Shown here piece after piece: positions 2-8,343 of a DNA stretch of 33,954 nucleotides. Origin of the DNA: an uncultured Candidatus Saccharibacteria bacterium (GTDB lineage: Bacteria > Patescibacteriota > WWE3 > UBA101185 > UBA10185). Numbering within the stretch: the stretch's first letter is position 1; each line of letters begins with the position of its first letter. Below the pieces are notes generated by a model. That model searched no databases. It had not been told where the DNA came from and saw only the letters and a list, made by a program, of their open reading frames with translations. The translations under genes and the position numbers were made by a program. The stretch lies in NCBI GenBank assembly GCA_964480825.1, contig CAYZRJ010000003.1:1-33954 (forward strand), written 5' to 3'.

Positions 2-1477
2 GCCACAGACGTAAACGGTAGTCTGGATGTTATCAAAAAACAACAGAGTGATCAGACAAACCTGGATATAAAATTAAACTCTTTTACAATCGGGGAGGGA
101 CGGCAAAATAGTATAACAATACTTTATAAATCTAAATTTGTCGCAAATAAAACTGGCGAGATTTGGAATATTAATATTCCCCGTTCACAAATCGCAACGT
201 CAACGACAACGTATCATATAACCCTGGTGGTTCCAAAGACGTTTGGGCCAAAAATATTTGTGTCCCCTACCCCATCGATCGAAAAGTCAGACGACAATGT
301 AACCACATACTCGTTTGCAGCTGAAATAACAAATGGTCAAAATATCGCCGCATCGTTTGGTGAATATCAAGTTTTAAATTACAGAATCAGGTATCAAATA
401 ACAAATCCTAATTTTTTTACATCAAACTACGAAATAGCACTACCGCCAACGATAAACGAAACACAGGTTGTCGCGTATGAAAATCTTAACCCAAAACCGA
501 ATCGCACATATACAGACAGCGACGGAAATTATATGGCGGTATACAAAATAAGACCAAAACAAGCTTTGGAAGTTGAACTCAAAGGCAGTTCAAAATTAAC
601 AAGTAAACAGATAGACCCGCTACTGGGCGGTAAGTTTTCGGATTTACCAAAAAATTCGGTCAGAAAATACACTGAAAAAAAAGAATTTTGGGAAACAGAC
701 AATTTTCAAATAAAACAAATAGCCAAAGATCTGCGCAACCCCAATCTTACTGTGGCGGAAAACGCGAATAAAATTTATAACTATATTGTTGATAATTACT
801 CGTATGACTTTGGAATCGCTAAAAAAGATTTTGTTGACCGCAAGGGCGCTATTAAAGCCTTAAACGATAAAGCCGGGTGGGGCTGCATGGAATTCACTGA
901 TTCATTTATCGCTATTGCGCGTGCGATGGGAATTCCGACGCGCGAAATTAACGGTTATGCTATTACGACCACCGAATCTCAAAAACCAATTTCGGTAACC
1001 TTAAAAAACGGAGATTTATTACACGCATGGCCGGAGTTTTACGATCCAAAACTGGGGTGGATTCAAATCGATCCGACTTGGGGAGACACTTCGAATACTG
1101 ATTACTTTACCAAGCTGGACACCAACCACTTTGCATTTGTTATTAAAGGCGATAAGTCTGATTACCCGCTACCAGCTGGAACCTATCGAACGTCCAATTT
1201 AGAAAAATTAGTCGAGGTTGGTTTTTCTCAAGTAGATAAGACATCGCAGTTTAAAGGTAATTTTCAAACAAAAAAGCTTTTTACTTGGAATATTTTTGAA
1301 ATCATGGCAGGTAAACGAACATTTAAAATTACAAACACAGGAAAAGTCGCTCTATACTACGGCGTGGATAACGTGCTTATGCCCGAGAAAAGTGCAAACA
1401 TCTACGTTCCGAAAAATTCAAAAAGCTTGATGCTCAAAGACGCGTTTGGAGATGAGGTTACAAAACCGCTTCTTTAG
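2..1477 (+). CDS. transglutaminase-like domain protein (5' end lies outside the window)
   Basis: The frame of the listed ORF 227..1477 stays open back to nt 2 (ATDVNGSLDVIKKQQSDQTNLDIK...). The GTG at 227 is therefore internal and the gene is truncated by the window edge. Cys-His-Asp transglutaminase-like core: GWGCMEFTDSFIAIARAMGIPTR ... HAWPEFY ... IDPTWGD. Confidence 0.8.
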   Translation, partial: ATDVNGSLDVIKKQQSDQTNLDIKLNSFTIGEGRQNSITILYKSKFVANKTGEIWNINIPRSQIATSTTTYHITLVVPKTFGPKIFVSPTPSIEKSDDNVTTYSFAAEITNGQNIAASFGEYQVLNYRIRYQITNPNFFTSNYEIALPPTINETQVVAYENLNPKPNRTYTDSDGNYMAVYKIRPKQALEVELKGSSKLTSKQIDPLLGGKFSDLPKNSVRKYTEKKEFWETDNFQIKQIAKDLRNPNLTVAENANKIYNYIVDNYSYDFGIAKKDFVDRKGAIKALNDKAGWGCMEFTDSFIAIARAMGIPTREINGYAITTTESQKPISVTLKNGDLLHAWPEFYDPKLGWIQIDPTWGDTSNTDYFTKLDTNHFAFVIKGDKSDYPLPAGTYRTSNLEKLVEVGFSQVDKTSQFKGNFQTKKLFTWNIFEIMAGKRTFKITNTGKVALYYGVDNVLMPEKSANIYVPKNSKSLMLKDAFGDEVTKPLL

Positions 1478-4032
1478 TTCTCACTTAAACTTTTTAGGTG
1501 ATTTCTTAATGCTTCCGCGGTGTACGAAACCTTATTCCTTTTTAAATCCTCAATACTTCCGTTAAATAAAATTTCGCCGCCCTTATCACCACCATCTGGT
1601 CCAAGATCGATAACCCAGTCTGCATTGGCTATAACATCTAAGTTGTGCTCTATGACTAAAACAGTGTTTCCGCGAGCGGTAAAACGTTTAAGAATGGTGA
1701 TTAAATTTTCGAGGTCAGCAAAGTGCAAACCTGTTGTCGGCTCGTCTAAAATGTACAAACTGCTTCCCGTAGAACGTTTTGATAGCTCTAGTGCTAACTT
1801 AACTCTTTGCGCCTCACCGCCGGATAAAGTTGTAGCCGGTTGACCTAGTTTAATATAGCCCAAACCAACATCGTCCAGCGTCTGAATTTTTCTACTTATC
1901 TGCGGGATATGCTCAAAAAAAGTTAATGCCTCAGAAACATTCATGTCCAAAACATCGGCTATGTTTTTTCCTTTATACATTATTTCCAGCGCTTCACGGT
2001 TGTATCTTTTTCCGCCGCAGACCTCACATGTAACATACACATCCGGCATAAATTGCATTTCTATTTTTATCTGACCATCGCCTGAACACGCTTCGCAACG
2101 ACCGCCCTTTACATTAAAACTAAAACGTCCTGCAGCATAACCACGCACGCGGGATTCCTGAGTCATTGCAAATAACTCACGTATAAAATCAAAAACTTTG
2201 GTGTAAGTTGCCGGATTTGATTTTGGAGTTCTACCGATTGGAGTCTGCTCGATTGCAATTACGTTTGAAATATTCTCAAAACCTTCTATATCTTTAAAGT
2301 CTTCGGGCATTTCTTCGATTTTAAGACCAAATCTTTGGCGTAATGCTCTATACAAAGTATCCATAACTATAGTTGATTTACCCGAACCCGAAACTCCTGT
2401 GATACAGATAAATTTACCCAACGGTAAGTCAAGATTTACGTTCTTTAAATTTCTTCCCGAAGCACCTTTTAATATTAAATTTCTACCTTTGGTACTCTTT
2501 TTAGAAATATTTTGCTCCTCGTTATCCAAAAGTTGTTGCAAGTTTTCTTTTGCTTTTCCGCTATGTTTACCAACAACTAGTTTTCCTGATAAGTATTGAC
2601 CGGTTATAGAATTTTTATTTACCATGATTTCTTTTGGGGTTCCCTCCGCGATTATATTTCCACCGTGTTCACCGGCTCCCGGTCCAAAATCGAAAATATA
2701 ATCGGATTTGAGCATGGTTTCAGCGTCATGTTCAACCACCAAGACTGTATTGCCTAAATCGCGTAAGTGAAACAATGTATTTATCAAACGTGATTGGTCT
2801 TTTTGATGCAATCCGATAGATGGCTCGTCTAAAACATATAAAACTCCTGACAGTCCGGAACCAATTTGCGAGGCCAATCTTATTCTTTGGGCTTCCCCTC
2901 CCGACAATTGAGCCGAAGATCTTTCGATAGTTAAATAATCCAAACCGACGTCAACCAAAAATTTTAAGCGGTAAGTTATTTCTTTTAAGATGTTTTCACC
3001 GATCTTATTTTCCCTTTTGTTGAAAATATCGGGTAAATCGGCCACCCATTTGCGCGCATTTGTGATAGAGCCCCGACTAATTTCCCATATATTTTTACCG
3101 TCTATTGTAATGGATAAAGATTCTTTTTTAAGTCTCGATCCGTTGCAAACAGGACATATCTCCAAAACCATGAATTTTTCTATTTCGCTTCGAATAAAAT
3201 CTGATTCGGTTTCTTTGTGGCGTCTCTCTAAGTTTGGAATTACACCCTCGAAATTTGCGTCATAAGTATGCTCTCTGCCCTCTTTGGTTATGTACGTAAC
3301 TTTAAATCTTTTGCCCTCGACACCATATAAGATTATTTTTTGGTGTTCTCGCGACAATTTACCAAAAGGTATTTTTAAATTTATTCCGTACTCCTTAGAA
3401 ACTTCGTCTACTACCTTTTGGGTCCAGCTATAATGTTCAAACAGTCTAACCCACGGTAAAACTCCGCCTTCAGCAATCGAAAATGATTTATTTATTACTA
3501 AAGACTCATCAACGTGCAGTTGGGTTCCTAAGCCGTCGCATGCCGAACATGCTCCGTGAGGCGAGTTAAACGAAAATGTTCTCGGCTCGATGTCGGCTAG
3601 TGAAATATTGCACACAGGACACGCAAAATTTTCGCTAAACAAATAATCCTGTGTGTCTTTTGGGTTTTCAGGAAAATCCATAGATTTGTCTCTTACAAAA
3701 GTTATAACGGCACTTCCGTTTCCTAAATGCAACGCGGTTTCAATTGATTGAGTCATGGCTCTCGAAATGTCTTCGTTTTTAAAAGTTTTATGTGAAACAA
3801 CGTGGCGCGAAATCATTCCGTCAATTGAATGTTTGTTGGTTTTAATCAAATCAAAGTTGTCACTCAAGTCCCTTATAACACCGTCTATTCTTGCTCTAAT
3901 GATTCCTTGTTTTTTGAGATTTTCGAAAAGTGTAGAGTATTCGCCCTTTCGATCGCGAACGATAGGCGAAAAAACTATGAAGCGCGCGCCACGTTCCGAT
4001 TTAAAATACGCATCTTCCTGAAGTATATTCAT
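1474..4032 (-). CDS. uvrA: excinuclease ABC subunit UvrA, C-terminal ~88% (this frame stays open upstream to the frameshift at about 4114)
   Basis: Motifs: ABC signatures LSGGEAQRIRLA and LSGGEAQRVKLA; second Walker [10 protein letters not shown]; zinc modules CPVCNGSRL and CEACSGDG. Collinear with E. coli UvrA from the ...RARIDG region onward. The listed M at 4032 is internal: in the same frame upstream I read [33 protein letters not shown]. Confidence 0.93.
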   Translation of the reverse strand: MNILQEDAYFKSERGARFIVFSPIVRDRKGEYSTLFENLKKQGIIRARIDGVIRDLSDNFDLIKTNKHSIDGMISRHVVSHKTFKNEDISRAMTQSIETALHLGNGSAVITFVRDKSMDFPENPKDTQDYLFSENFACPVCNISLADIEPRTFSFNSPHGACSACDGLGTQLHVDESLVINKSFSIAEGGVLPWVRLFEHYSWTQKVVDEVSKEYGINLKIPFGKLSREHQKIILYGVEGKRFKVTYITKEGREHTYDANFEGVIPNLERRHKETESDFIRSEIEKFMVLEICPVCNGSRLKKESLSITIDGKNIWEISRGSITNARKWVADLPDIFNKRENKIGENILKEITYRLKFLVDVGLDYLTIERSSAQLSGGEAQRIRLASQIGSGLSGVLYVLDEPSIGLHQKDQSRLINTLFHLRDLGNTVLVVEHDAETMLKSDYIFDFGPGAGEHGGNIIAEGTPKEIMVNKNSITGQYLSGKLVVGKHSGKAKENLQQLLDNEEQNISKKSTKGRNLILKGASGRNLKNVNLDLPLGKFICITGVSGSGKSTIVMDTLYRALRQRFGLKIEEMPEDFKDIEGFENISNVIAIEQTPIGRTPKSNPATYTKVFDFIRELFAMTQESRVRGYAAGRFSFNVKGGRCEACSGDGQIKIEMQFMPDVYVTCEVCGGKRYNREALEIMYKGKNIADVLDMNVSEALTFFEHIPQISRKIQTLDDVGLGYIKLGQPATTLSGGEAQRVKLALELSKRSTGSSLYILDEPTTGLHFADLENLITILKRFTARGNTVLVIEHNLDVIANADWVIDLGPDGGDKGGEILFNGSIEDLKRNKVSYTAEALRNHLKSLSEN

Positions 4033-4052
4033 TATGCCATTAACTATCTCGT

Positions 4053-4457
4053 CTATGCTTTGACGTTGGATTTCACGACCACAATTCGGACAGTGAGGAT
4101 GACCGACTCGAGCAAAAGTCGCATATAGTCGTAAATTTCGGTAATTGTTCCAACTGTAGACCGCGGATTTCGAGAAGTTGTTTTTTGATCAATGGCAATT
4201 GCCGGCGATAACCCGTCAATTTTATCAACTTCGGGTTTATCCATTATGCCTAAAAACTGTCTTGCATAAGCAGACAGACTTTCGACATAGCGACGTTGAC
4301 CTTCGGCATAAATTGTATCCATCGCCAAAGAAGATTTACCCGAACCCGACACACCTGTAAAGATTACAAGTTTATTTTTTGGTATCTGAAGATCAATGTT
4401 TTTGAGGTTATGTTGGCGAGCGCCTGTAACAACAATGTGATTTAATGCATTTTTCAC
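4053..4457 (-). CDS. uvrA: UvrA N-terminal fragment, out of frame with the rest of the gene
   Basis: Reads (V/M)[69 protein letters not shown]...[12 protein letters not shown], the canonical UvrA N-terminus. After 4114-4117 it runs into 17 nonsense codons and a stop at 4053. The likely start is GTG at 4457 (in frame; it matches MDKIEVRGARTHNLKNI of E. coli). The listed ORF extension to 4622 lies in the upstream RNA unit. Confidence 0.85.
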
Positions 4458-4464
4458 AGAAAGT

Positions 4465-4493
4465 ATTCTACGGTATTTTTTCGGGTTTGTGAA
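4465..4493 (-). promoter_or_regulatory. uvrA promoter, leaderless type
   Basis: Minus strand: TTCACA (4493-4488), 17 nt, TAGAAT (4470-4465), 7 nt, GTG (4457). Confidence 0.55.
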
Positions 4494-4504
4494 GATGTAT
4501 TGCT

Positions 4505-4553
4505 GGCAGAAATGAAACGAGCCGACACCTTTAATTAAATAGGTTGTCGGCTC
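4505..4553 (-). terminator. intrinsic terminator of the RNA unit upstream of uvrA
   Basis: Minus-strand hairpin GAGCCGACAACCU / AGGUGUCGGCUC (4553-4541 / 4530-4519, one bulged A) with a 10-nt AU loop, followed by GUUUCAUUUCU. Confidence 0.6.
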
Positions 4554-4872
4554 TCGTAACAAGGGGTTTAGCCTTGGAATTTGCGAAACTAGTTGCGTGA
4601 TTGAAATGTACAAAACTCGCAACTAGCTCTTCTTAGCATTTGGCAATGCCTCTGTTTATTCTGATGGTTTTTACTGACCAAGGTCTGAAGCCTTGCGTTA
4701 AATCCATAGGCGCTGTTTGGCAACCTGGGTAGAGGCATTCCCTGGGATCGGTTGGGTCTAGGCTGGCACGTCTTAGTGTGTCTTTGCGACCCGTAGCTCT
4801 CGCTGGTTGGCGAGATTACTTTGGAGAGGTCAGGATAAATTGAGTCCATTTTTCCTCTTGGTTTGGGAATGT
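4508..4872 (-). ncRNA. unclassified structured RNA candidate of about 365 nt (class unknown)
   Basis: It is bounded by a perfect consensus promoter and the hairpin/U-tract terminator. The core is 52-58% GC (hand count of rows 4681-4800) in an AT-rich genome. Several helices can be drawn by hand, including a 9-bp long-range helix and a 12-bp helix whose G-U pairs work only on the minus strand. No Rfam-type signature motif is recognisable by eye. Confidence 0.55.
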
Positions 4873-4922: not shown

Positions 4923-6908
4923 TTAAATGGTGCGCTTAATCTCCCGCACCTTATCCCTTAGCACCGCCGCTTTCTCAAAGTTAAGCATTTCAGCCTCATA
5001 AATCATCTCTTTTTGCAGGTCTTTTACAACTTTTTTGAGCTCTTGTGGAGGTAGTTGTTGGTAATCTACGTCCGTTAGACTCTTTTTGCCTTTACTGTCA
5101 ATGTCTTCTTCGATTTCTTCGTCAACTAGACGCTCTCTAAACGGTTTTGAAATATTTTCCGGTGTAATATCGTGAGCAATATTGTATTTTTCCTGAATCT
5201 TACGTCTGCGATCTACCTCGGCAACAGCTCGTTTCATACTGTCTGTGACACGATCAGCGTACATAACAACTTCACCTAAAATGTGTCTGGCGGCGCGTCC
5301 CATGGTTTGTATCAAAGAAGTATCCGAGCGCAAAAAACCCTCCTTGTCCGCGTCCAAAATAGCAACTAATGAAACTTCCGGCAAATCCAATCCCTCGCGC
5401 AATAAATTAATTCCGACTAAAACATCGTAGTTACCTCTACGCAAATCGTCTAAAATCTCGGTTCGCTCTAAAGTATCAACATCTGAATGCAAATATGTAA
5501 CTTTAATATTTTGCTCCAACAAATAGTTAGACAGCTCTTCGGCCATTCTTTTTGTTAATGTTGTTACCAATACTCTTTCGTGGCGAGCAACTCTTTCTTG
5601 AATTCGGACCAATAAATCTTTAACCTGATCTTTGATAGGCAAAATAGTAACTTTTGGATCCAAAATTCCTGTTGGTCTGACTAACAACTCTGTAACTTTA
5701 CCTTTTGATCGTTCAATTTCCCACTCGTTTGGTGTTGCGCTTACATAAATTGTTTGATCGACTTTACCCAAAAACTCATCAAAGTTTAATGGACGATTAT
5801 CTAAGGCTGATGGAAGTCTAAACCCATATTCGATTAAAGTTTTTTTGCGGGCCTGATCACCGTTATACATACCTCGAACCTGCGGAATAGTGATGTGCGA
5901 CTCGTCTATAACCAACAAGTAATCTTTTGGAAAGAAATCCATCAATGTGTAAGGAGTAGACCCCGGATCTCGGTCGTCGAAATAACGTGAATAATTTTCG
6001 ATACCTTTGCAGTAGCCAATCTCTTGCATCATCTCTAAATCGTAGTTGGTTCGCTGCTCAAGACGGTAAGCTTCCAGATTTTTTCCCTGCGATTTAAATT
6101 CCTTTAGTCTTAGTGCTAAATCGGTTTTTATTTGTTCACGCACCCCCTGAACGCGGTCTGCCGGCGTAACGTAGTGCTTAGCAGGAAATATATCTACACT
6201 CTGAATTCTATCTTCAATGCTTGAAGCAGTTATCGGATCAAACGAGGATACACGTACAATCCTGTTATCTAAAAATTCTACTCTAATCGCGTAATCTAAA
6301 TAAGCTAAAAATACGTCAACTACATCGCCCATGACACGATAAGTTCCACGTTTAAAATCTATATCCGAACGCTCGTAGTTTATTTGGGTCAAACGCGTAA
6401 TAAAATCCAGCGCTCTTATTTTCATACCCGCCCGCAATTCTATCGCCATTTTTGAATAGGTTTCAGGCGAACCTAAGTTATAAATACACGAAACAGATGA
6501 AATAACAATCACGTCTTTTCTGGTCATCAAAGCTGTAGTTGCCGCTAAACGTAGTTTCTCTATTTTTTCGTTTATTGCCGAGTCTTTTTCTATATAAGTA
6601 TCAGTTGAAGGCAGGTAACTTTCGGGTTGGAAGTAATCGTAATAACTAACAAAGTATTCAACTGCGTTTTTTGGGAAAAAATTGCGAAACTCTTGAAATA
6701 ATTGTGCCGCTAAAGTCTTGTTGTGCGAAATTATTAAGGTCGGACGTTGAACTTTCTGAATAATTTCTGAGATTACAAATGTTTTTCCGGAACCTGTAAC
6801 TCCCAACAAAACCTGATTTTTGTCACCTTTAATTAAACCTTTTGAAAGTTTTTCTATTCCTTCGGGTTGATCGCCTGCGGGTTTGTAAGATGAAATTAGC
6901 TCAAACAC
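4923..6908 (-). CDS. uvrB: excinuclease ABC subunit UvrB
   Basis: Motifs: SSYKPAGDQPEGI N-terminus, Walker A GVTGSGKTF, DESH box (VIDESHITIPQ), C-terminal UVR domain (EMLNFEKAAVLRDKVREIK). The start is set at GTG 6908 (MFELISSYKPAGDQP, compare B. subtilis ..FELVSKYQPQGDQP) because TATACT sits 6 nt upstream. The maximal ORF starts at ATG 6929, which would lie upstream of that -10. Confidence 0.93.
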   Translation of the reverse strand: MFELISSYKPAGDQPEGIEKLSKGLIKGDKNQVLLGVTGSGKTFVISEIIQKVQRPTLIISHNKTLAAQLFQEFRNFFPKNAVEYFVSYYDYFQPESYLPSTDTYIEKDSAINEKIEKLRLAATTALMTRKDVIVISSVSCIYNLGSPETYSKMAIELRAGMKIRALDFITRLTQINYERSDIDFKRGTYRVMGDVVDVFLAYLDYAIRVEFLDNRIVRVSSFDPITASSIEDRIQSVDIFPAKHYVTPADRVQGVREQIKTDLALRLKEFKSQGKNLEAYRLEQRTNYDLEMMQEIGYCKGIENYSRYFDDRDPGSTPYTLMDFFPKDYLLVIDESHITIPQVRGMYNGDQARKKTLIEYGFRLPSALDNRPLNFDEFLGKVDQTIYVSATPNEWEIERSKGKVTELLVRPTGILDPKVTILPIKDQVKDLLVRIQERVARHERVLVTTLTKRMAEELSNYLLEQNIKVTYLHSDVDTLERTEILDDLRRGNYDVLVGINLLREGLDLPEVSLVAILDADKEGFLRSDTSLIQTMGRAARHILGEVVMYADRVTDSMKRAVAEVDRRRKIQEKYNIAHDITPENISKPFRERLVDEEIEEDIDSKGKKSLTDVDYQQLPPQELKKVVKDLQKEMIYEAEMLNFEKAAVLRDKVREIKRTI

Positions 6909-6923
6909 AAAAATAGTATAGCA

Positions 6924-6937
6924 TCGCAATATTGCGA
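6924..6937. promoter_or_regulatory. perfect 14-bp palindrome TCGCAATATTGCGA, candidate operator in the divergent uvrB / orf196 promoter region
   Basis: TCGCAAT | ATTGCGA is an exact inverted repeat. It lies in the spacer next to the uvrB -10 (TATACT, 6920-6915). Its right half is the -35 (TTGCGA, 6932-6937) of a plus-strand promoter TTGCGA-N17-TGcTATAAG (6952-6960). Confidence 0.5.
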
Positions 6938-6987
6938 GTATTAAGTATCTGTGCTATAAGGTATATACAAAAAGTAAAGGAGAAAAT

Positions 6988-7578
6988 ATGTCAGAATACA
7001 ACTGGAAGCCTGTTCTTCTGCATACTGCAGAGCTGGAATGCACTATAACTTTTGAAGGGCTCGCAAAATATCAGGAGCAAGGAGCGACACTCACTTTTCA
7101 TGTACTACCTAATTTAGGCTTTGCGGCTCCCAAAACTGACGTCAGCGAAAAAGCGTGGGAACGAGAGGTTGTAAGATTCGTTAAGGAAAAGGCCGCTGAG
7201 CTTACTGGGCTTGAACCAAGTGACTTCATGCTGAACGGATGGTGGGGAGTCGGACCAAGCTTAACGGTTGCAACATTGAAAAAACCCCTAAAACTTACCG
7301 AAGATCTGATTGTTCGCATGAGTGTGGACGGCACCGAAATAGCGGAATCACTTCGCGAAGCTCGAAAAGGTTGCGTTCACATCAAAGGAACTCTCGTCTC
7401 AGGGCATCGCGCAGTCGGAGAAGACGTTGAATTCTGGCTACCGTTTGATGTCCACGAAGTCCGTCTATCTTTTGTAGCTCCTCACGGTTACGTACTGCGC
7501 GAGGAGAAAAATGGACAACTTGGAGTTCGCGCGTGGCTTGAAGGAGTTGAACCGCCAAAAAATATGGTGAGTTTCTAA
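6988..7578 (+). CDS. hypothetical protein, 196 aa, compositionally atypical
   Basis: Strong Shine-Dalgarno AAGGAG (6977-6982) 5 nt before the ATG, and its own terminator downstream. About 47-52% GC in sampled rows, against 28-37% in uvrB and lexA rows. No family motif that I recognise. Confidence 0.7.
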   Translation: MSEYNWKPVLLHTAELECTITFEGLAKYQEQGATLTFHVLPNLGFAAPKTDVSEKAWEREVVRFVKEKAAELTGLEPSDFMLNGWWGVGPSLTVATLKKPLKLTEDLIVRMSVDGTEIAESLREARKGCVHIKGTLVSGHRAVGEDVEFWLPFDVHEVRLSFVAPHGYVLREEKNGQLGVRAWLEGVEPPKNMVSF

Positions 7579-7584
7579 GTATCT

Positions 7585-7625
7585 AGCCTTGTGAATCAAA
7601 AATGATTTTACAAGGCTATTTTATT
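7585..7625 (+). terminator. intrinsic terminator after orf196
   Basis: AGCCUUGU (7585-7592) pairs with ACAAGGCU (7610-7617); the hairpin is followed by AUUUUAUU. Confidence 0.7.
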
Positions 7626-7627
7626 GC

Positions 7628-7657
7628 TTGACATGTTCGGGTTTGTTTTGGTAATAT
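7628..7657 (+). promoter_or_regulatory. lexA promoter
   Basis: TTGACA (7628-7633), 18 nt, TAATAT (7652-7657). This gives a leader of about 50 nt before ATG 7714. Confidence 0.55.
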
Positions 7658-7713
7658 TTTACTAACCGAAAGAAACGCGTAAATAATTTGCATTCGCTAA
7701 GAAAGTTTTAAAA

Positions 7714-8343
7714 ATGAGTCCCATAACCTTATATAGAAAACAAAGACAAATTTTAGATTTTATTTCGCAGTATATTCAAAAGAATAATTACTCCCCCACA
7801 CTACAAGAGATAGCTGCCGCTATGAATTTATCTTCACTTGCCACTGTTTTCGAGCATCTGCAAGCTTTAGAAAAAAAAGGTGTAATTAGACGCTTCGAAG
7901 GTACCGTCAGAGGCATTGAAGTTGTTGATCAAGGTTTCAACTCCTCTCTATCCGGAATAGAATTACCGATCATCGGATTTATTGCGGCCGGTGAACCAAT
8001 CGACGCGATTGAAAATCCTATTGACACCGTTATGGTTGCCCCGGACATGGTTTCAAAGTCTAAACGATGCTATGTATTGCAGGTTCGCGGTGACTCGATG
8101 ATCCAAGAAGGAATTTTCGACGGAGATTATGTTGTTTTACAAAGCCAAGAGGTAGCAAACGACGGCGAGATTATTGTTGCTTTGATAGATGATATGTTTG
8201 CAACCTTAAAAAAGTATTATCACGAAAAAGATGGCCGAATTAGACTACAACCTGCAAATGACAAAATGGATCCTATTTATGTAAACGCAAGTCAATTAAA
8301 GATTCAGGGTAAAGTGACGGGTGTAATTAGAAGATTTAATTAA
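7714..8343 (+). CDS. lexA: LexA repressor (S24 self-cleaving peptidase)
   Basis: N-terminal winged HTH (YSPTLQEIAAAMNLSSLATVFEHLQALEKKGVIRR). Ala-Gly cleavage site in IAAGEP. Catalytic Ser in RGDSM and Lys in ATLKKY. Confidence 0.95.
   Translation: MSPITLYRKQRQILDFISQYIQKNNYSPTLQEIAAAMNLSSLATVFEHLQALEKKGVIRRFEGTVRGIEVVDQGFNSSLSGIELPIIGFIAAGEPIDAIENPIDTVMVAPDMVSKSKRCYVLQVRGDSMIQEGIFDGDYVVLQSQEVANDGEIIVALIDDMFATLKKYYHEKDGRIRLQPANDKMDPIYVNASQLKIQGKVTGVIRRFN

Follow-up and report, generated by a model that had tools for sequence, protein, structure and literature searches.

orf196 is an orphan gene between uvrB and lexA in an uncultured Candidatus Saccharibacteria bacterium of the WWE3 lineage (assembly GCA_964480825.1; 713 kb, 66 contigs, 94% complete). 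It was studied in a window of 33,954 nt, i.e. the whole stretch of contig CAYZRJ010000003.1 analysed here. Its open reading frame (ORF) is framed by expression signals that, read from sequence features, make up a self-contained unit of about 700 nt, comprising promoter, strong ribosome-binding site, coding sequence and terminator. The protein consists of an N-terminal module (N-half) and a C-terminal module (C-half), which are encoded separately in a sister lineage known from groundwater contigs (L001-L004, L066, L067). The unit and its modules comprise:

6932-6960, + strand: predicted sigma-70-type promoter of orf196, with TTGCGA (6932-6937), a 17-nt spacer and the extended -10 element TGc-TATAAG (6952-6960), from direct reading of the sequence
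6977-6982, + strand: Shine-Dalgarno sequence AAGGAG, 5 nt from the ATG of orf196
6988-7578, + strand: orf196, ORF of 196 aa with ATG start
6988-7299, + strand: N-half, residues 1-104, modelled by AlphaFold as a beta-hairpin, two helices and one strand; homologous to stand-alone WWE3 proteins
7296-7311, + strand: fusion junction, where the sister lineage has 56 extra nt (a 56-column alignment gap after 7304)
7300-7578, + strand: C-half, residues 105-196 and stop codon, all-beta with seven to eight antiparallel strands (AlphaFold, homology)
7584-7626, + strand: predicted intrinsic terminator, with a stem-loop (7584-7618, 12-bp arms) and the T-rich tail TTTTATTG, from folding

The original prediction, made from the sequence of the window, had described a 196-aa orphan gene at this position. 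The ORF is intact, and the ratio of non-synonymous to synonymous divergence (dN/dS) against the sister allele is 0.18 for the N-half and 0.09 for the C-half. Intact ORFs align to both halves in other genomes, which demonstrates a conserved frame. AlphaFold models full-length orf196 with a predicted local distance difference test score (pLDDT) of 87.3 and a predicted template modelling score (pTM) of just 0.60, and the C-half alone with a pLDDT of 90.2 and a pTM of 0.81. The identical fused protein is present on five contigs from four data sources. Because of the low dN/dS values (0.09-0.18), the confident models and the recurrence of the identical protein, orf196 is a real gene under purifying selection.

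The orf196 promoter was found by direct reading and is not listed in the promoter scan. The hairpin terminator, also anticipated by the original prediction, folds with -18.7 kcal/mol (z = -5.2), and none of 200 shuffled sequences was equally stable. A simple terminator scanner made no call for this stem-loop. The sister allele keeps the arms of the stem (AGCCTTGTGAA...TTCACAAGGC) around a different loop. The Shine-Dalgarno site had been regarded as the only canonical one in the window. This is true of AAGGAG upstream of ORFs with 60 aa or more, the one other match lying inside uvrB, but further ORFs of the window are preceded by GGAGG, and AAGGAG combined with a start codon occurs 76 times in the genome.

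The protein is predicted to be soluble (pI 5.6). As proposed initially, it lacks a transmembrane segment (maximal 19-residue Kyte-Doolittle mean of 0.79) and an assignable family. No match was obtained in Pfam, NCBIfam or PADLOC, and the single match in PHROGs was a PHROG without assigned function at E = 0.055. Eighteen members of the family were scanned against Pfam and PHROGs, and no family was common to more than two of them. The N-half profile found nothing in the PDB. The suggested combination of HMMER with AlphaFold and Foldseek likewise yielded no known family or fold neighbour: Foldseek gave no match at E <= 0.001 for the full model against PDB and BFVD or for the C-half, and nothing below E = 0.1 for the full model against BFVD. 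Rfam had no match over 6800-7800.

Several weak similarities were dismissed. The C-half profile retrieved the PDB chain 8qkh_S (E = 0.07), whose entry accompanies a study on the neck of Staphylococcus phage 812; the similarity is too weak and was unconfirmed by Foldseek. The full model retrieved norovirus proteases (TM 0.12) and the ribosomal protein eS24 (TM ~0.25-0.37), all at E >= 0.04, and the C-half retrieved curved-sheet or NTF2-like designs with a best E value of 0.25.

Two modules and their relatives

The 56 nt present in the sister lineage contain a stop codon, a Shine-Dalgarno sequence (AAGGAG) and a new ATG, and thereby give rise to two ORFs of 111 and 99 aa. These are 11 nt apart and have one promoter and one terminator. 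They match orf196 end to end: the 111-aa ORF corresponds to residues 1-108 and the 99-aa ORF to residues 105-194. According to this alignment, two modules that the sister lineage encodes in separate, neighbouring ORFs are fused in orf196.

An exhaustive HMMER search among 1.8 billion representatives yielded ten matches, two of them spurious (long repeat proteins). The remaining matches cover either residues 1-104 or residues 100-195. The N-half was recognized in P0002, P0005, P0012 and P0013 with E values of 1e-33 to 1e-42. This family of 104-111 aa has the conserved motifs PNL, LTGL..DF and WGVGP. The C-half occurs alone (P0003, P0011), behind membrane anchors (P0004, P0016, P0018, P0020) or behind a different N-terminal domain of 75 aa (P0015, P0017, P0019). 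Profile searches in 134 genomes of the class detected each half in four genomes and both together in the own genome only. The compared relatives are metagenome-assembled genomes with a completeness of 75-100%, so that 'not found' is weaker than 'absent'.

All recognizable homologues originate from WWE3 or from groundwater and metagenome contigs. None was found outside WWE3-type genomes among the 1.8 billion representatives, 5.8 billion clusters and a collection of species-representative genomes; in the latter, alignment A5 matched two WWE3 genomes only. Metagenome contigs of the JGI contained no match to the exact 35-nt leader sequence or to the C-half alignment. A survey of the distribution and of synteny with lexA or uvrB had been suggested with the original prediction. 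It revealed a rare, WWE3-restricted gene whose homologues elsewhere have unrelated contexts.

Homologues of the N-half are located in three other WWE3 contexts (L013, L016, L018) as solitary genes with an upstream spacer of 170-270 nt. Their layout is TTGCnn-17-TATAAGr, about 22 nt, AAAGGA, 7-8 nt and ATG, with a stem-loop and a T-run downstream. Stand-alone N-half genes of other WWE3 genomes lie 84-113 nt 3' of tRNA-Val(CAC) or tRNA-Ala(CGC) (L013 4811-5315; L016 4841-5315; L055 1311-1809). Taken together, homologues of either half were seen after tRNA genes, beside a methyltransferase gene and in a glycosylation cluster, never in a repair context. The metagenome contig L022 harbors a tandem array of four consecutive N-half-like genes (241-1683; 144, 118, 112 and 110 aa).

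Contig C1 of the own genome encodes three further paralogues of the C-half within a gene cluster for glycosylation. The respective regions, C1:24300-29330 and 34130-34650 (L012 4308-9326 and 14132-14650), form an island in the cluster with a GC content of third codon positions (GC3) of ~50-55%. In this island, a 128-129-aa protein is paired twice with a C-half-containing protein of 167-169 aa; a third paralogue of 129 aa, orphans of 161 and 282 aa and a membrane-anchored C-half protein of 172 aa are also present. At the corresponding position of the related contig L021 there is only one C-half gene, which follows a B12-type radical-SAM gene. The 128-aa partner proteins of the C1 paralogues had no match in the PDB. 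A likeness of the N-half to these partners or to tautomerase-like beta-alpha-beta units was rejected, the profile comparison giving a probability of 0.1%.

Insertion site, allele divergence and control region

The flanks of the unit and the features overlapping it were assigned as follows:

6908-6920, - strand: left insertion edge, with the uvrB start GTG at 6908 and the -10 element TATACT (6920-6915); uvrB of L001 (661 aa) maps to 6908, and the element was found in the promoter scan
6924-6937, no strand: perfect 14-bp palindrome TCGCAATATTGCGA, its right half being the -35 element of orf196 and the whole lying inside the uvrB promoter spacer
7020-7630, no strand: hyper-divergent segment with sharp edges, 62-68% identical to the sister lineage in alignment bins of 60 columns
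7628-7657, + strand: right insertion edge, the lexA promoter TTGACA-18-TAATAT with the repeat TTCGGGTTTGTTTTGG (7636-7651) in its spacer, from promoter scan and relatives
7714-8343, + strand: lexA, in the same direction as orf196

A LexA search covered 40 relatives, from which 29 loci were kept; 38 of the 41 searched genomes have lexA. In 21 of the 29 kept loci, uvrB and lexA are divergent neighbours. As the original prediction of an insertion implied, the two genes are direct neighbours in at least ten genomes, with 70-140 nt between the start codons. The gap comprises 205-225 nt in two genomes and 450-1160 nt in nine others, whose ORFs are unrelated to orf196 and mostly to each other. These encode coiled-coil proteins that have a C-terminal motif in common (L033, L036, L049), membrane peptides of 52-66 aa (L037, L039, L042), proteins of 109-146 aa (L037, L044) and, on the opposite strand, a 177-aa ORF (L042). 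The own gap (6909-7713) has 805 nt. Comparison with empty sites places the borders of the insert at the -10 region of uvrB (~6921) and the -35 element of lexA (7628). From these gene orders, the divergent uvrB-lexA gap is a recurrent insertion site, a hot spot, in WWE3.

The absence of orf196 from the orthologous site in most relatives and its patchy distribution are the comparative signature of a transferred gene, and a transfer within WWE3 appears to have taken place. The idea of an acquired single-gene cassette is thus retained in part: the unit is self-contained and homologous units occupy unrelated sites, but a recent import from outside is not apparent. Neither an integrase nor a target duplication or terminal repeat was found around the insert; matches of 8-9 nt did not exceed the chance level.

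The region of uvrB and its control sequence up to ~7019 is 87-100% identical to the sister lineage, and identity returns to 90-100% from 7635 onward. Within the segment enclosed, synonymous divergence (dS) amounts to 1.7-2.8 for the halves of orf196, i.e. saturation, compared with 0.14 for lexA, 0.52 for uvrB, 0.61 for dedA and 0.70 for the His_Phos gene. Saturation extends to synonymous sites, and the divergence thus cannot be due solely to relaxed or positive selection acting on the protein. The pattern suggests that the orf196 unit was replaced by homologous recombination via the conserved edges, or that two old alleles have been maintained. lexA itself has diverged much less from the sister lineage (dS 0.14) than the genes around it (0.5-0.7), which suggests a recent recombination and a mosaic locus.

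A control region of 79 nt (6909-6987) is common to orf196 and uvrB. Its palindrome is a candidate operator for some repressor, and a factor binding there could affect both promoters. The core CGCAATATTGCG (12 nt) is present as a single copy in the window at <= 2 mismatches, and the palindrome is the sole match of TCGCA-N4-TGCGA in the genome. Sister contig L002 has the palindrome with one mismatch.

The lexA promoter of 19 relatives reads TTGACA-N2-TTCG-N7-TTCG-GTA...-10, with a direct repeat filling the spacer between -35 and -10 elements. This spacer is the classic position of a repressor site. The LexA site of Alphaproteobacteria is GTTC-N7-GTTC, which TTCG-N7-TTCG resembles, and the latter is a candidate LexA operator of WWE3. 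No paper linking WWE3 with LexA was found in the literature. An operator matrix was trained only on these lexA promoter repeats, themselves putative LexA sites. With this matrix, uvrB-proximal regions of 17 of 21 relatives score 7-21; most relatives have a similar element, TTyGGGTTTTrTTTGG, at a distance of ~20 nt from the start of uvrB. The own genome contains the repeat in front of lexA (7636-7651) and of a gene for an SplB-like radical-SAM protein (C51:2477-2492). The best extra match precedes an Ldh_2-type dehydrogenase gene, not recA, which leaves lexA, uvrB of the relatives and the one SplB-like gene as the only sites at which the repeat is supported.

The region between uvrB and orf196 (6909-6987) lacks TTCG-N7-TTCG. 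Its best score is -3.5, with a mean of -1.2 and a 95th percentile of 5.0 for shuffled sequences, and the palindrome scores -6. Of the co-regulation proposed originally, the palindrome overlapping both promoters was recovered, but the putative SOS operator repeat is missing, and SOS control of orf196 is not supported. The operator-like repeat kept by relatives is lacking at uvrB in the own and the sister lineage. The insertion seems to have displaced it, and uvrB of the own lineage may have lost its usual control element.

The original prediction had further called orf196 compositionally foreign. In GC content the gene does differ from its surroundings: 47.9% versus a genome mean of 38.3% (sd 3.3%, 591-nt windows), a level reached by 0.8% of windows, and rank 14 among 671 ORFs. 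The genome-wide comparison, which had been recommended, traces the anomaly mostly to the first codon position, where the GC content (GC1) of 63.8% ranks first of 671 (z = +3.5). GC2 is 39.8%. GC3, an indicator of recent transfer when atypical, is an ordinary 40.8% (z = +1.0, rank 80 of 671), and so is synonymous codon usage, with a deviation ranking 33rd of 205 ORFs of similar length. The residues E, V, G, A, W and H are enriched, and I, N and Y are depleted; the share of F, Y, M, I, N and K (FYMINK) is 19% versus 32% in the proteome. As the excess lies mostly in GC1, and both GC3 and codon usage are ordinary, it reflects the amino-acid make-up and not a foreign codon usage. Homologues of the N-half type have GC contents 1-6 points above their loci and follow the GC of their host, e.g. 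39% in a 33% locus. In contrast, the C-half paralogues on contig C1 have an atypical GC3 (50-55%). The composition of orf196 does not indicate a recent import from outside WWE3. An inherent feature of the fold may be responsible, or a signal that is very old and ameliorated.

Proposed role and rival explanations

The structural and evolutionary description of orf196 is very likely correct: a WWE3-specific, dispensable, self-contained unit of two fused modules at a recurrent insertion site, with a deeply diverged allele that has been exchanged or maintained. In terms of function, orf196 is probably a dispensable accessory gene specific to this lineage and not a repair gene. A variable-interaction role with phage, host or envelope is tentatively preferred to a housekeeping or repair function because of the strong expression signals, the rarity, the local paralogue expansions, the membrane-anchored relatives of the C-half, the movement between sites and alleles that are deeply diverged and under purifying selection. 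As a tentative specification of this role, orf196 may encode a soluble binding protein of the cytoplasm with a variable conflict- or interaction-type function, e.g. in phage or host interaction. Roles other than those considered here take up the remaining probability.

The proposed course of events starts with a 56-nt deletion that would have fused the two ORFs into orf196. By this fusion, the N-half and C-half would work together physically in the own lineage. So-called 'Rosetta-stone' fusions are proteins that are separate in one genome and form a single chain in another. The sister ORFs of 111 and 99 aa, matching orf196 end to end, resemble this case, but the partners have no assigned function, and a fusion predicts cooperation only, not an activity. 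The unit may have been exchanged by homologous recombination through the conserved flanks, or two old alleles may persist; either would explain saturated synonymous divergence inside normal flanks. On arrival, it would have taken the place of the operator-like repeat present at uvrB in relatives, and the palindrome over the -35 element might let a repressor control orf196 and uvrB together.

Phage morons are autonomous promoter-gene-terminator units inserted between otherwise adjacent genes. orf196, as far as its sequence features tell, is similarly a single unit with its own predicted promoter and terminator between direct neighbours of the relatives. It differs in composition from its surroundings, varies in presence by lineage and has kindred units at different sites. 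Unlike morons, it resides in the chromosomal core locus uvrB-lexA and not in a prophage, has no phage genes nearby and no assignable PHROG or BFVD match, and owes its composition to amino acids and not to codon usage.

The original prediction had considered a damage-response factor. A DNA-damage-response effector, such as a division inhibitor or an accessory factor of repair, co-regulated with uvrB through the shared control region, would suit the position between uvrB and lexA, the common 79 nt and the palindrome overlapping both promoters, and several relatives have in their gaps membrane peptides of 52-66 aa resembling SOS-induced division inhibitors. Lineage-specific SOS genes next to lexA include those for YneA, SosA, SidA and SulA. 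Like them, orf196 is small, poorly conserved and lineage-restricted, adjoins lexA and has a control region in common with an SOS-type gene. Nevertheless, this role is unlikely. The soluble protein has no membrane segment, hence not the single membrane span of such inhibitors, and neither a SulA domain (Pfam, NCBIfam) nor another known domain. The gene is parallel to lexA and has its own terminator, the lexA/uvrB repeat is absent, and the palindrome scores below shuffled sequence. Homologues of either half belong to unrelated contexts (tRNA genes, methyltransferase, glycosylation cluster), and each half was detected in 4 of the 134 class genomes, yet lexA in 38 of 41. Nothing was found that points to a damage response. 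A variant of this idea, in which the unit brought its own palindromic operator, replaced the ancestral SOS-type element at uvrB, placed nucleotide-excision repair (uvrB) and orf196 jointly under a different repressor and supplied a new damage- or stress-response effector of two unseen folds, is very unlikely.

The two small adjacent genes of the sister lineage, 11 nt apart under one promoter and before one terminator, are reminiscent of type II toxin-antitoxin operons, as are the perfect palindrome over the -35 element, the patchy distribution and the location in an intergenic hot spot. In that case the N-half would be the antitoxin and the C-half the toxin of an addiction pair that regulates itself at the palindrome and is fused, and perhaps also neutralized, in the own genome. 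Such a pair is quite unlikely in view of the missing matches to any toxin, antitoxin or defence model, the acidic N-half without a detectable DNA-binding domain and N-half units elsewhere that have the same promoter layout without the palindrome. The halves are usually apart: the N-half occurs alone in three or more genomes and as the array of four in L022, and the C-half occurs alone or membrane-anchored. Beyond the own genome, they were found in three genomes each, different ones, of the 134. A recent acquisition from a GC-richer organism outside WWE3 could account for the 48% GC against 38%, in the top 0.8% of windows, for the FYMINK share of 19% against 32% and for the absence of the gene from the same site in most relatives. 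It is very improbable, as GC3 is just one SD above the mean, codon usage is unremarkable, homologues track the GC of their host and none was of a type other than WWE3 in the searches described above. Finally, the gene might be an accidental fusion heading to loss. Related genomes do without orf196, which is hence dispensable, and the frameshift in the neighbouring uvrA indicates some local decay. This is the least probable explanation, with dN/dS at 0.09-0.18 over both halves, frame, promoter, Shine-Dalgarno sequence and terminator intact, confident structure models and the identical sequence in several assemblies.

Several points weigh against the preferred reading of orf196 as an exchanged accessory gene of two cooperating modules. 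No match to a family, fold or motif points to a function. The modules mostly occur apart, and their physical cooperation has the fusion as its single support, at a full-length pTM of 0.60. A locally raised mutation rate, instead of an allele replacement, may have produced the divergent segment. The position between two SOS-type genes could be meaningful, the palindrome being a variant LexA site to which the lexA-trained matrix is blind. An old import from a GC-richer donor, since ameliorated, could have left the high GC1 and the unusual amino-acid composition as its trace.

Both modules are outside the described families, and no solved or viral structure is a neighbour of their confidently predicted folds, so that new protein families would be gained from a solved structure or a phenotype. 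Unannotated orphan genes are very common in candidate-phyla genomes, and nothing unusual has yet been seen of orf196. The locus represents a compact natural experiment in bacteria with tiny genomes: a conserved repair-gene pair with a common control region in which different small genes have settled repeatedly, one gene that exists both split and fused, an allele whose divergence exceeds that of its flanks several-fold and an apparent loss at uvrB of the operator-like repeat usual in the lineage.

Neighbouring genes

uvrA (1474-4622) is split by a frameshift into ORFs of 852 and 189 aa in the own genome, and is a single gene of 995 aa in sister contig L001. The spacer between uvrA and uvrB (4581-4860) is unalignable with the sister contig, having 279 nt here and 436 nt there. 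Both ends of uvrB therefore border variable segments.

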